DNA of 64,000 bases. Source: Yuukianura sp. NJ FZ-2021. Its lineage: Eukaryota. The notes beneath the pieces are model-generated. The model was not told the DNA's origin and did not search any database. It was given only the letters and a program-made list of their open reading frames with translations. Below, one piece after another: positions 1,783-27,049 of this stretch (position 1 is the stretch's first letter; the number at the start of each line of letters is the position of its first letter). Location: NCBI GenBank assembly GCA_046563655.1, contig CM102288.1:1860001-1924000 (forward strand). The letters are read 5' to 3'. Both the position numbers and the translations under genes were made by a program.

Positions 1783-5437
<3,655 letters not shown>

Positions 5438-19623: not shown

Positions 19624-22600
19624 TTAACGATCAAAAATAGTTAGTTCCTCCAATCGCATTGTACCCATGTGAGATTCAACTCGGTAGCGAGCCAAATCCT
19701 TCCTAAACATGGCATAGACACAGCAAAATAAGAAATGCATTGTGAGAATTATGCGATATGATGATTTTACTCACCGTGTGACCATTCCCACGACCTCGTT
19801 CAGACTGAAAATGAAAAAAGTTTACAACTTTGCATTTCTGAATTTGAAAATAATCATGAGAAGATACTCACTCGTTAACAATGACTAAATGGCGTAGTCC
19901 TAATCCACGGAAGAGGCGAAACAATCGAGGGAGACTTGCGTTGTGGAGAGCAGTGTAAGAAGCGGGGTTCATGATTGGTCTCAAGTCAACTGTGAAGCGT
20001 CGTTCCTCGACGCTGATATGAACTTGCTGAATTGTAGGGTAGCGTGGATAGGCGTCTCGAAAGTACTTGAGAATGTCACGGTGACACCAAGTGTCCGCAG
20101 TTTCATTGAACAGCTTATGCTGGAGCATAACGATCAATTGGCTCCTTAGAATCAATCCTCGGTAGGTACCAAAACTTCTCTGTAAGCAAGAAAAATGTAA
20201 AATCAAGTTTTTCAGCCAAAGATTTATGAATTAAAGTAATTGATTTACCCTGTCATCGGTTGTTGGTGGATCTACAACTGGAAATCCGTTGTGAGTTTCT
20301 CCCGTAAGAGTGTCGATGATATTTCCCACGGTTTCTGTAGAATTGAAAGTCACCACAGGACAAGACATGACTTCTGTGGCATAAATGTTGTGAGCCAAAG
20401 AAGGTGGCTGCCACGGAAGTATCGGAACGCCCATCAATCGAATGTGCGTATCGTAAATTCCCTGTAAAGAAACCAAAAATTAACATCGACTCAAAAACTT
20501 GGAAAGAATGCAAAAGCTGTACCTCATTGAAGTAGTCTCCAACCCATTTTGACACCATCAAAGTGATCATCAAAGGAAGGCCTAACGTCAAGTTGCCAGT
20601 TGCTTCAATTAAAATGACTGTCAAACTGATTGTCATGCGTACTACTCCTCCCAACTGCGACGCAGCTCCAATCAGCGCATACTTTCCTGGATCTACCCAA
20701 GACTGAAAATTAAGAAACAAAAACGTATAACTTATTCCTTATACTCAGCAAACCAGTCTCAACCGGAGTTGCCACAAAACTTACTTTATCCGGAAAGTAG
20801 TACCTGAAATCACATAAATTATTTAGCTGGCGTTTGCATGGAAAAAAAAGTTTGAAGTTTGAAAAAACGAAAACTTGAAAAATACAAACTTACTCCATTC
20901 CTGTCCCGACAACTCTTCCCCAAGCAGCACCAGTCAGTAACGCTGGAATGAACAGCCCCGACGAAACGCTCAGACCGTAAGTCCAGCAGGAAAGAAAAAA
21001 GTAAAACGCGAAGAAAATTAAAACCGATGACAATTTGTGCGATCCTAAAAAGTTTAAGAAAAAAATACATCAAATCTCAAATATTTTTCAATTTCAACAA
21101 CTTTTTTTTGTGAAATAACCTTCTACTGACCTGGTGGATCGTGAAACAGCGATTTGACACTCGCTTCAGGGGTTTGAAACCAAATTGCTCCGATAGCGCT
21201 GTATTCCGCATCGCTGCACCTAAAAACAAACAAAACAAACACATTATGAATCCTCATGCGCTATTTTGCGATGTATAAGAACTTACCACATCTGAATTGG
21301 ATATTTTGTTGGATCTTCTCCCAGTGGTTTGCAATCATCGATGAACAGGATCATTCCAAATCCTATTGCCGCAGTACATCCAGCAACCAAGAGAGCTTCA
21401 ATCACTTTGGCCCAACTTCTGTAGATATAACGCAGTCTAAACACAGTCAGTTTGTAGTTGAGGAAATTGAACAGAGCACCAAGGAGTCCACCAATGGCTC
21501 CCATTGCCAGAAAAAGCGGGAGCTCAATGAAGTCGTAGTTCGTGTTATCAAATTTTCCAAAATTTAAAAGGCCAGCGTAGGTCAACTGCCCTGGACGTCC
21601 ATGGTAGGAGCTCAGAATGACGTTAAGCGTAAATGTGGAAATCATCGATCCAAAAAACATGCGCCAAGTGAGTCCTAAGTTATCAAAAAACAAAATCAAG
21701 TCAATTAAAAACAAAACTTTGTAAAAACGTTTAAGTTTTGATGAATTGCCTTACCTTGATTCCAAAAACTTGCACCTTCTTCTAAACTAAACAAAACACC
21801 GCCTACCGGAGCTCCGAATGCTGCAGCTACACCAGCCGCTGCTCCAGCAGAAACGAAATCACGCTTCTCGTGATCCTCCCGAAAGTACGTAAAAAACTTA
21901 AAATCGTGTCCAAATGATGTCGTCTTCCCCTGAGAGATTCCTACAAAACATTTCCAAAAATATTTTTAGACTCAAAATTCCAAAAAACGAAAATCGAACG
22001 TTTCTGATTCGGTACCCGCTGCAACAACAGCTCCAGAGTGAATCATTGGTCCTTCCTGTGAACAGAACGAAGTGAAAATTGTATTTTGTTAACATTTCAA
22101 AATACTGCGAGTATTACCTTTCCGACTGCCAGTCCTCCAATCACAGAGCAGGTCACGCCCACCGCCTTGACCAACAGCGTCTTGATCCTCACAATTCTTG
22201 GCATCTTGATTCCGTTCAAATAGCACTTGACCTGTGGAATTCCACTTCCTGCTGCCACTGGCTCAACGTAGGCAACAAGTACCGATCCAATTAAAATTGG
22301 AAACATGTTCCAACCAATCCACGCAAGGAGTGGAAAAACTAAACAATTGTCGACCACACATCGATCTGTCAAGTTCTTCAATGTGGAATACTTTACCGAC
22401 GAAACTTCTTCAATTGTTATATCAATCGTTGCAGCGATTACTGCAGTGAAGATCCCAATAAACATGATGATGATCCATCGATACAGATCTCTTCTGGCGA
22501 TGAATTGGTACCCCTGCGTCCGTTCCTCGTCAATATGAAGTTGGTTTTCACAAATGTCGTAGTCTAGACTTTCAAATTTAGAAGAGAGCAGGCGGAGATT

Positions 22601-23023: not shown

Positions 23024-23631
23024 GACCTCGACTTGACCTTTCCAAGGTGAGCGGTTCAACTTCAATTAACTAATTGTCGTCTTCTAGTCGCATTTTCGCT
23101 GAATGATTTAGCACTAAAAAAAACAAAAGGGGTGTTTTATTGGGTATACGGTATACGTGAATCCAGTCACACATGTGTAGGTTTGTAGGTAGATTGTGCA
23201 ACTATTTTGCAAAAAAAAACTTTTATATAACTTACGAACTTAAAACAGCAGCGCAGCGTATCGTCTGAAGTTTCTTAAAGTCGGAACGAGGACCAATTTG
23301 TTGTGATAACTTCAACTGAAAACCTCGTCTGTAGTTCCAACTCCTCCTTAAGTGGCGTAATTCTTTTAGTCTTGATGAGCTTTGACCTCTAGAAGAAAAT
23401 GAATGAATCACAGGAAAAAATTAACGAAAACAGATTAGGAGGATTATAAAAATACTAGCCAAAGAGAATACTCTGCTTTCCCTCCGTTTATCAGCTGTTG
23501 AGTCATATGTGGTCTCAAGTCGAGAAATAAACGGAGGGAGTAACTATTCTTCCGAAAATTTTCAACAATATTTGAAATTTTTACTGCAAATCACTTTGTA
23601 AAACGATTAAGATGAGCACAACTTACAAATA

Positions 23632-25249
23632 TTACAAGCATATCTTCACTATTGAACTTGTAGTCCAATGTAAATCACAAGTTGGGCAGGTCTGTGTCTC
23701 CGTTTTCACCAATCCGATGAGACAGTTTCTGCAAATAATGACATGGTTGCAAGTACTTTTGTAGAATACTTGTACTGGAGAGTTTTTCCCCGACGTTTCT
23801 AACTTTTGACAGCATTTGAGACACTGTTGAGTAAGAGAAGTTGAAGCGTCGCCAGAGTCACGTGGCTTATAACAAGAAGCGTCGCCTAAGATCCGAGCCA
23901 GTTCCTGTTCCATAAACTCCTTCGAAGTCACTGGAATTTCTTGTACAGGCGGAGTGGTAGAATTGAATTGTGCAGCAGTTGAGTTGCTCATCTGCGCGAA
24001 CGAAGAAGGCGCTGACGATGATTGCTCAGGTTGTAAAGGAATTTCAGCGATTCGGGAGCATTGTAGCACACCATCAGTTCCTGTTGACTTTGATCCGAGT
24101 GTCCTAGGAACTTGAGCTACGCTTAAACTTGAACTTTGACTGAGAAAGGCATCAATGCGCCCTTTGAGGGCCAAATCTGGAACGGGCCTTGAGTCGTCCG
24201 TAAAAACTTTTCCGGTAAATGGATCGTTTTCACTTCTTCCCCATTTAGCTTCTTCTCTTGTGTATCTCTCCAACGTTTTAGATCCAATTGCTACCCCACA
24301 GGGAAGACGAATAGGCTGAACCAGCACTTCAAACGTAATGGGATCCAGAAACTCTTCTGGAATTTCCATTTCAGATGCTTCATCATCCGATAATTTCCGG
24401 CGCTTATTAGTCTGGAGGCAGTCGGAATCGTTGTCTATCTGATTTAGTAGAAAAAGTGAGACAAATTCATCTCCCATTCTCAAAATTTTGATAATTTTAT
24501 CAGTGAAAACTAACCTCCAAAGTTCGTTTTTGTTTCGATGTATTTTTGAATTGTATCCAAGTACTTAAGAGCTTCTGGACTTCGGCAAAAGTAGACCATT
24601 TTGAAGGTTGGCCCCAGATTTCCAGTGCACCTAAAACGGGTAGCCTAGCTGGTGCTTCAGCTCTTTCTATGGTTAAATGTAGAGAGAAGATGCGTTCACA
24701 TGCGTTGTATGTTGGATGTCGAAGACCAAACGAATTGGGATTGTTTCGGTGATACTCAAAGTCTGCCAGAGAAAGATTACAATATTTTCGGTGAAGGATG
24801 AACCGCGGATTGCGAAATACAACGACTGGAGGTATTTGTGGACCTTGAAGAAGTTCACGACCAATTTGGAACAAGTTATGTTCCTCGCCTTTTTCATTCT
24901 TATGATAAAAAAAAACATTGTTATTAGTGTTACATCTTCACAGACATTATGAGTAACTGATTCAACTTACTGAATTTATGTCCACTTCGATCTTGAATCC
25001 AGAAGACATTTGTTGACCAAGCTTAGGATTGATGACAATATGACTTAGGTGAATAGGAGTTGGAAAGTCCAGTCGAATTTTAACCGGAGGGCGGACAAAT
25101 CTGGAAGGCATGAATCCCGTACCCTCCGACCCCATTATAGTTGCAATAGCACTTGATTTTCTCAGCAGATTGGTAACATCATAACCTTCCTCCGATACTC
25201 GTCCAACGACTTCAATTTTAGTGCCGAGTTCCTCTGTACAAAAATTCAT
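23632..25249 (-). CDS. UBOX5: U-box/RING E3 ligase (RING finger protein 37)
   Basis: N-terminal MNFC...SEEGYDVTNLL...FVRPPV...FP and LEIWGQP motifs, a U-box (IPEEFLDPITFEVLVQPIRLPCG...DPFTG) and a C-terminal RING (C..C...C.H..CR.CL...CPTC). Confidence 0.9.
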
Positions 25250-25287
25250 GATTCGACTGGTGGTTGGACTTCCCCAATCTTGTAAGT

Positions 25288-25517
25288 TCTGTTCAAATTA
25301 GCAAATTGTTAAAGTCCGGTATGGATAGAACGATCGGTTGTTAGAAACTATACCAATTATTGATGAACAGTTTCCATCCGAGCCACATCCAAAGAGAACA
25401 GAAGAGGAAGGCAGGAACAGAGGCTACCGTTACAATGAATGCATATGTGACATCGGATAACTCAATTTCTGCATTCCATTCATCCAGTGTCAAATTCCCA
25501 AAAAGATTGAGTTCCAT
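25288..25517 (-). CDS. PIG-Y-like small membrane protein (54 aa), upstream ORF of the UBOX5 transcript
   Basis: MELNLFGNLTLDEWNAEIELSDVTYAFIVTVASVPAFLFCSLWMWLGWKLFINN. The C-terminus resembles the PIG-Y/Eri1 signature W-x-W-x-G-x-KLF-x-x-N-stop. A predicted 65-nt GT-AG intron (25353-25289) creates the TG|A stop. Confidence 0.65.
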
Positions 25518-25898
25518 TTACCGAAGATTAGGCCAGTACAAGAGCGAAGTTCCGGAAGTTAGATGGCCAACTTTACTTGACCTTGACCTTAGAGCTAGAC
25601 GAACTACAACAAATGTGAAATGTTATACGATCTTGTAACTTAAGTTCTATAGATAGAGTTATTCATTACCTTTTCGAATTGAGAAACCCCGTTTCTCACA
25701 TGTAATTAACAATTAAATTTTAGTTTGAAACGAAACGAAACAGCGAAAGTGAACGTGTGTTCTGTTATTGCAATGCAATTCGGCTAAAAATTACAAATGA
25801 ATTTAAAAAAAGTAAACAAAGAATCATAGCTGGACAAAATTCGCTATTGTGCATCCAATTTTCTTGCAAATAAAAGTCAGCGAATCCCCGATCGCTGA

Positions 25899-26673
<775 letters not shown>

Positions 26674-27049
26674 CCTTCTCTAGTTTCCTGTAAAAGTTAA
26701 AAAATAAGCTTAAAAGTAATTCGTTTGGAATCCAATTACTTTTCCAGTAATGTTGCTTACCGGAATTCAGAATTGAATTGAGGATTTGTCACTTTCCCTC
26801 TCTAAATTACAAATGGAAAGTGTTTCTACTTATTCCTGGAAAATCTCACACCACACAAGTGGTATAATATCGTGAGACGAACAAAAAACAAGCTTAAAAG
26901 CTAATTAATCGGACTCATAACGAATTTTTCTTAATTTTGGTAAGTTTACAAACAAATTACATCTCAATTTGGATGGCTACAGGTTATTCCTTCTGCTTAA
27001 TTTTAAGTAAAACTGCACTGCAACCGTTTTTTTTCGCCCATCCTCTTCA

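Follow-up and report, generated by a model that had tools for sequence, protein, structure and literature searches.

In this study, a short open reading frame (smORF) was analyzed on the minus strand of a 64,000-nucleotide (nt) stretch of contig CM102288.1 from Yuukianura sp. NJ FZ-2021 (assembly GCA_046563655.1, positions 1,860,001 to 1,924,000). This whole stretch is called the window, and positions are counted within it. The smORF (25517–25356) is, on the evidence of family searches and codon conservation, very likely a real ortholog of PIG-Y that is hidden as a smORF. PIG-Y is the smallest subunit of the GPI-N-acetylglucosamine transferase (GPI-GnT), which initiates the synthesis of glycosylphosphatidylinositol (GPI) anchors. 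Yeast Eri1, a GPI-GnT subunit regarded as the PIG-Y counterpart, is a small endoplasmic reticulum membrane subunit of the same enzyme. Taken as a whole, it is reasonably probable that the locus carries an insect-type single-helix PIG-Y on one capped messenger RNA (mRNA) with UBOX5, and that an intron splits the PIG-Y stop codon.

Identity of the smORF product

The smORF opens with the ATG at 25517–25515, and its 54 codons (MELNLFGNLTLDEWNAEIELSDVTYAFIVTVASVPAFLFCSLWMWLGWKLFINN) end at 25356, where the peptide closes with FINN. The assignment of 25356–25517 (minus strand, ATG to second Asn codon) was drawn from the list of open reading frames (ORFs), Pfam, relatives of the peptide, a second copy on the metagenome contig L001, and an AlphaFold2 model.

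The sole Pfam match of the window peptide was PIG-Y (PF15159), with an E-value of 3.6e-4 and 21.7 bits over profile positions 34–67 of 69. The earlier note had called the peptide PIG-Y-like and had proposed a search with this Pfam model. The match was significant, and its score did not reach the curated PF15159 cut-off of 25 bits. The L001 copy scored lower still, at 19.5 bits. These two sub-threshold scores weigh against the identification.

Relatives of the peptide were searched with phmmer among 1.84 billion representative proteins at E ≤0.001, and five were found (E 3.7e-8 to 5.1e-4). Each alignment extended to the final residue of both query and relative. The PF15159 scores of the five relatives were 25.5, 28.2, 28.4, 29.6, and 39.4 bits, all above the cut-off. 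With a profile made from these relatives (A1), 24 proteins were found; a precomputed PF15159 domain was on record for 20 of these. A wider profile of 21 sequences (A3) retrieved 30 proteins, one of which bears the NCBI name [quoted passage not shown] (P0034). Other A3 matches were uncharacterized proteins of 37–62 amino acids from Bradysia, Anastrepha, Eurosta, and Calliopsis. The window peptide was 51% identical to the beetle PIG-Y P0034 over 37 residues, with a pairwise E-value of 2e-14. The nearest three clusters in the ESM Atlas, used as a lead only, were all PIG-Y (scores 0.87, 0.84, and 0.82). The claim of PIG-Y identity was thus borne out by relatives above the Pfam threshold, by one relative that NCBI names PIG-Y, and by the significant Pfam match.

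The C-terminal signature of the PIG-Y family is W-x-G-W-x-L-[FY]-x-N-N. The invariant columns of the A3 alignment (21 sequences) were P35, W45, G47, W48, L50, N53, and N54, and all of them are present in the window peptide. The peptide has a single hydrophobic stretch, with a hydropathy peak of 2.01 over residues 26–44. In the AlphaFold2 model, a short helix at residues 11–18 was followed by a long helix at residues 22–51. The mean predicted local distance difference test score was 84, with values of 93–97 within part of the long helix. Since the Pfam match spans only the second half of the PF15159 model (second helix and C-terminus), the window protein is predicted to be a one-helix form of PIG-Y, as in insects. 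The length of many insect members, 36–40 amino acids, also points to this form.

The single peptide retrieved no candidate in a word-indexed protein search, and the A1 and A3 profiles retrieved no PIG-Y chain from solved structures. Among those structures, the only matches were chance ones to membrane helices, in cytochrome oxidase II (E 1) and photosystem I subunit XII (E 0.07). When 21 family members were compared with the window by tblastn, the smORF itself and weak look-alikes were obtained, and no second PIG-Y copy was found. Weak matches to the C-terminal motif recurred at 22301–22342 on the minus strand, in a membrane helix encoded by a conserved exon of the CLC chloride channel gene (E 0.003–0.05, against the window alone). 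This site was rejected as a second PIG-Y and was taken as a look-alike within a well-conserved CLC exon.

The smORF copy on L001 was 76% identical to the window peptide over all 54 residues, and the two coding sequences shared 74% of their nucleotides. Their 42 differences fell at codon positions 1, 2, and 3 in the numbers 10, 5, and 27. The proportions of nonsynonymous (pN) and synonymous (pS) differences were 0.137 and 0.714, with a pN/pS of about 0.19. The Jukes-Cantor dN/dS was 0.067, an approximate value with dS near saturation. The earlier note had named codon-level conservation in relatives, with dN/dS below 1, as a check on the peptide, and the ratio of about 0.07 against the L001 relative agrees with it. 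Both alternative frames of the smORF region were closed in the window and L001 alike. The 5' leader and the spacer to the next gene barely aligned between the two loci, whereas the smORF codons did, which argues that the peptide itself is conserved. The results indicated that the smORF peptide is under purifying selection, as judged from this comparison, with the acidic N-terminal 20 residues and the start codon included. An N-x-T sequon was seen in the N-terminal part, as NLT in the window (25488–25496, minus strand) and NYT in L001 (5022–5030); it was not kept in the wider family.

Adjacency to UBOX5

The ORF downstream of the smORF was identified as UBOX5 by Pfam (DUF5918, E 1.1e-20; U-box, E 7.3e-16, in the last exon). 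After the second Asn codon, the DNA reads TG (25355–25354), then GTATAG from 25353, continues to ...TTGAACAG at 25289, and is followed by A at 25288. The minus-strand ATG, the 54 codons to FINN, and the TG|GTATAG...AACAG|A arrangement therefore lie in the sequence and the ORF list as the earlier note had described. Excision of 25353–25289 (65 nt) would place TGA immediately after NN, also as described. The distance from there to the UBOX5 ATG at 25249 had been given as 39 nt and is 38 nt (25287–25250); 39 is the difference between 25288 and 25249. The segment 25250–25288 consists of the last base of the putative split stop and this 38-nt intercistronic spacer, which is free of ATG. Without splicing, the smORF frame runs on for four codons (WYSF) to a TAA at 25343–25341, which gives an ORF of 58 amino acids (25341–25517). 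The spacer is 91 nt from that TAA, and the genomic distance from the last Asn codon is 106 nt.

The same order was found in L001. There, the smORF (5001–5162) closes with a direct TAA, and 53 nt further on lies a UBOX5 ATG (ATG AAT TTC TGT) encoding MNFCTEALGTKIE. The N-terminus of this UBOX5 matched DUF5918 (E 2.1e-28) and was 62.6% identical to UBOX5 exon 1 of the window. L001 then carries a U-box (E 3.1e-17) and a CLC gene that is 86% identical to that of the window. A large ORF upstream in L001 was homologous to a 1072-amino-acid ORF of the window. The two loci are, as read from these matches, syntenic save for a DHFR gene inserted upstream in the window. Both kept the DUF5918 and U-box domains of UBOX5 as a protein, and the identity between the two UBOX5 proteins was only 42–63%. 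The placement of the smORF 38–106 nt upstream of the UBOX5 start was conserved, and retention of the same tight order in so diverged a locus supports a dicistronic unit.

In both the window and L001, the stretch from the smORF to the UBOX5 stop is free of AATAAA and ATTAAA. Past the smORF, the window has its first such hexamer at 23141, roughly 490 nt beyond the UBOX5 stop. In L001, one such hexamer follows the upstream gene (4771) and two follow UBOX5 (7140 and 7151).

A 66-nt intron is predicted in the 5' leader at 25669–25604 (minus strand). Its borders, AAAAG|GTAATG at 25669 and TTGTTGTAG| at 25604, stand in the DNA as had been claimed. Between the predicted acceptor and the smORF ATG lie 86 nt free of ATG; the smORF ATG itself has A at −3 and G at +4. 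Eight AUGs precede the UBOX5 start, namely the smORF ATG and seven inside the smORF. A one-codon upstream ORF (ATG then TGA) was observed at 25696–25701 on the minus strand, in a putative first leader exon 5' of the predicted leader intron. It would be relevant only where transcription begins upstream of it.

The smORF and UBOX5 probably form one transcription unit, with the smORF as the first cistron. The shared mRNA proposed in the earlier note was supported indirectly, by the adjacency in L001 and the hexamer-free spacers. A PIG-Y–UBOX5 fusion protein was rejected, as the two frames differ and L001 has a direct TAA.

UBOX5 exon 1 (24971–25249, minus strand) has 93 codons (MNFCTEELGTKIE...) and carries DUF5918. 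It corresponds to L001 5219–5515 and is followed by a GTAAGT donor at 24970. The next intron (24970–24899, 72 nt) had no counterpart in L001: when the L001 UBOX5 protein was compared with the window by tblastn, a 19-codon gap with stop codons marked its site. The same comparison defined exon 2 (24515–24898). A 76-nt intron (24514–24439), with splice sites read by eye, precedes the last exon (23632–24438, stop included), which encodes the U-box and a RING-like C-terminus and is 42% identical to L001. Given the UBOX5 introns of 72 and 76 nt, a length of 65 nt is typical of the locality, as had been stated.

End of the reading frame and rival explanations

Twelve loci were compared: the window and the metagenome loci L001–L011. 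A stop followed NN directly in all 11 metagenome loci (10 TAA and 1 TGA). Among the family proteins read, 31 of 33 ended at NN (5 of 5, 19 of 19, and 7 of 9); eight further matches of the A3 search stood outside this count. The two exceptions, P0029 and P0037, both go on past NN with W; the gene caller may have translated a TGA stop as Trp, or the extension may be genuine. The window was the only locus whose DNA has no stop after NN. It has TGG instead, with GT exactly where an intron that completes the stop would need it. The predicted intron (25289–25353, minus strand) reads GTATAG...TTAAC...AACAG and would join TG to A to give TGA. The CLC introns inspected locally were similar in size. One CLC intron has the donor GTACAG at 20522, one base different from GTATAG, and its exon junction NE|GIYDTHI was set by homology. 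The UBOX5 intron at 24970–24899 is present in the window and absent from L001, so intron content differs between the two lineages.

Several points weigh against the split stop. GTATAG makes a weak donor. G stands at +5 in 10 of the 13 local introns that were read from homology and frame, T at +4 in none of them, and the exonic flank of the putative donor (TTG) is poor too. The CTAAT that the earlier note had proposed as the branch site is only 10 nt from the acceptor, too close for that role; judged by position, TTAAC at −21 is the better candidate. The chance rate of the split-stop geometry was counted over the 2058 TGG triplets in the window. A following T together with an AG|A that gives an intron of 55–80 nt was found for 7.5% of them. 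Requiring YTRAY 15–40 nt before the AG left 1.7%, and a further demand for a pyrimidine at −3 left 1.0%. No intron interrupts this site in L001 or the ten other loci, which makes a single stop-to-TGG mutation with a four-residue extension a simple alternative. Under this alternative, the PIG-Y smORF is real but no intron exists in the 65 nt: a change of the ancestral stop gave TGG, and the product is 58 amino acids long with a WYSF tail, ending at the TAA at 25343–25341. The arrangement with UBOX5 may persist in that case, with a 91-nt spacer. One transition is enough to make TGG from TGA or TAG, and the 58-amino-acid form scored the same against PF15159, at 21.6 bits. Set against this are the near-universal NN end of the family and the possibility that its two exceptions are misread TGA codons. 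The length, the CAG acceptor, and TTAAC at −21 also fit local introns, and a donor as close as GTACAG serves in CLC. Loss of the stop without splicing is accordingly a possible but less expected outcome, at about one chance in three by our judgment, and a stop made by splicing in the window is modestly favored. The earlier claim of a stop created by splicing was in this way upheld by the NN-stop elsewhere, the TGG with GT...AG|A, and the typical length, and weakened by the poor donor and the lack of an L001 intron.

The shared mRNA has its own counterarguments. The link to UBOX5 is lineage-restricted, as the smORF lies directly upstream of UBOX5 in 2 of the 12 loci, the window and L001. By tblastn, no UBOX5 match was found in L002–L011. 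UBOX5 domains were found by Pfam in L001 only, among 131 context ORFs of L001–L006, L008, and L009 (at least 75 amino acids in L001 and at least 66 elsewhere; L007, L010, and L011 were omitted as near-duplicates or too short). The sequence after the stop was 275 nt in L004, 130 nt in L009, and 9 nt in L010, and L011 begins inside the smORF; these four loci show little or nothing of the neighborhood. The absence of hexamers is weak evidence, as DHFR likewise has no canonical hexamer before the smORF. Co-transcription, the 65-nt intron, and the leader intron are all predictions from sequence; a search of sequencing runs with 23600–25760 listed no RNA run. The smORF and UBOX5 could instead be separate, tightly packed transcription units without translational coupling, with the PIG-Y mRNA ending, or the UBOX5 mRNA starting, within or just past the smORF. 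On a shared mRNA, UBOX5 would be translated inefficiently behind eight AUGs, and the smORF occurs without UBOX5 in other lineages: L003 has AATAAA 21 nt after the smORF stop, and CLC faces the smORF tail to tail in L002. Such separation is nevertheless unlikely, given a gap of just 53 nt in L001 or 38–106 nt in the window with no canonical poly(A) hexamer, and given an adjacency retained though the flanking non-coding DNA no longer aligns. The excerpted texts of PMC13303939 and PMC12259957 also place PIG-Y in a shared mRNA or locus in human and Drosophila. A further explanation, that the smORF is a mere regulatory upstream ORF of UBOX5 or a chance ORF with a functionless peptide, would suit its position in the UBOX5 leader, its strong start context, and its sub-threshold Pfam score. 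It is highly improbable in view of the purifying selection on the peptide, seen in the low pN/pS and the excess of third-position differences, and of membership in an insect-type family, at least 30 proteins strong, whose C-terminus is invariant and which occurs with or without UBOX5.

In L002 (5001–8802), the smORF is tail to tail with a CLC gene, and no UBOX5 was found within 5 kb. Because this distant locus keeps CLC beside the smORF without UBOX5, the PIG-Y–CLC neighborhood appears to outlast the UBOX5 link.

Proposed working and comparison with known PIG-Y systems

In the favored reading of a dicistronic mRNA with a split stop, both ORFs would lie on one capped mRNA, and the first AUG past the predicted leader-intron acceptor would be the PIG-Y start. 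Most ribosomes would make PIG-Y, because its AUG comes first and has a purine at −3 and G at +4. As only seven residues follow the hydrophobic core of the helix, the helix would be inserted post-translationally, in the manner of a tail anchor. With eight AUGs ahead of its start, UBOX5 would be produced in small amounts, either from a variant transcript or by ribosomes that reinitiate past the smORF stop. Excision of the 65-nt intron that splits the stop (TG|...|A) would restore the family-typical C-terminus. Retention of the intron would add four residues (WYSF) to the protein and leave a 91-nt spacer.

Human PIGY was reportedly described by Murakami et al. in 2005 as the downstream cistron behind PYURF/PreY, encoding 71 amino acids with two membrane helices. 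Compared with human PIGY as so described, the window would have PIG-Y as the upstream cistron, with one helix and a U-box ligase as partner. The annotated beetle PIG-Y P0034 (37 amino acids; PF15159, 31.7 bits) shares the helix and the ...LGW-x-LF-x-NN end with the window protein. Annotated insect PIG-Y such as P0034 is shorter and lacks the acidic N-terminal part.

In Drosophila, no recognizable PIG-Y was available until a 2025 CRISPR screen, in whose excerpted text CG46311 is a 40-amino-acid smORF "within a larger gene, Tpst" (PMC12259957). According to the same excerpts, CG46311 was required both for a GPI reporter to be displayed at the surface and for sensitivity to proaerolysin, its cDNA rescued the phenotype, and the protein was modeled beside PIG-A (PMC12259957). 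Like the window smORF, CG46311 as presented there is a tiny single-helix protein inside the locus of another gene and was long missed by annotation. The host gene is Tpst in the fly, whereas the partner is UBOX5 in the window, and the window protein (54 amino acids, against 40 in the fly) is extended at its N-terminus by an acidic stretch of 20 residues. When the reverse complement of single guide RNA 1 for CG46311, as printed in the available part of that paper, was translated by hand, VYLAFR was obtained; the 40-amino-acid tephritid family member P0039 has VYLAFQ. Judged from this translation alone, CG46311 probably belongs to the same family as the window peptide. PYURF–PIGY was listed among characterized human bicistronic transcripts in the excerpted text of PMC13303939; like the proposed window mRNA, it carries PIG-Y with an unrelated protein on one mRNA. 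The tick PIG-Y ortholog was left blank in the part of a 2026 ortholog table that was available (PMC13174539).

No description of a PIG-Y–UBOX5 transcript was found in literature searches, where papers naming UBOX5 and PIGY were unrelated by their titles and the starts of their abstracts, and the search for PreY was swamped by "prey". The statement that partner and order differ from human held as far as checked, and the Tpst smORF in the excerpts of PMC12259957 lowers its novelty. Human and fly already offer precedents for polycistronic PIG-Y; what is new here is the partner, the order, and the possible split stop.

A broader idea is that PIG-Y is a serial hitchhiker in the transcripts of unrelated hosts across animal lineages, and that the smORF exon is a cassette exon here. 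The hosts would be PYURF in human, Tpst in Drosophila, and UBOX5 in the window, with none in several other insects. The cassette would be the 250-nt exon 25603–25354 between the two short introns. Its inclusion would give a PIG-Y-first mRNA with the stop finished at the junction. Its skipping (donor 25669 to acceptor 25289) would remove the PIG-Y exon and the eight AUGs and leave UBOX5 as the first long ORF. This idea is speculative and is considered improbable. If the cassette were real, splicing would let one promoter serve both GPI-anchor synthesis and a ubiquitin ligase, with its output divided between them.

Because it is so small, PIG-Y is routinely overlooked by annotation. The locus points to a hiding place of PIG-Y in another lineage, in what would be a third distinct host gene and with PIG-Y as the first cistron. 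It raises the questions of why PIG-Y is found repeatedly on shared transcripts and whether the PIG-Y frame holds back UBOX5 output or is separated from it by splicing. The sharp C-terminal signature of the A3 alignment can be used to find PIG-Y in other arthropod genomes.

The neighbors of the smORF–UBOX5 pair on the same strand are DHFR upstream, whose last exon runs down to 25899, and CLC downstream. DHFR (25899–26700, minus strand) lies between the Q-rich 1072-amino-acid ORF and the smORF. By tblastn, no DHFR match was found in L001, where 440 nt separate the corresponding neighbors (4560–5001). On the minus strand of the window, no AATAAA or ATTAAA occurs from the DHFR stop at 25899 to 23141. 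On this sequence, DHFR must therefore either rely on a variant poly(A) signal no more than about 200 nt away or be read through into the smORF–UBOX5 unit.

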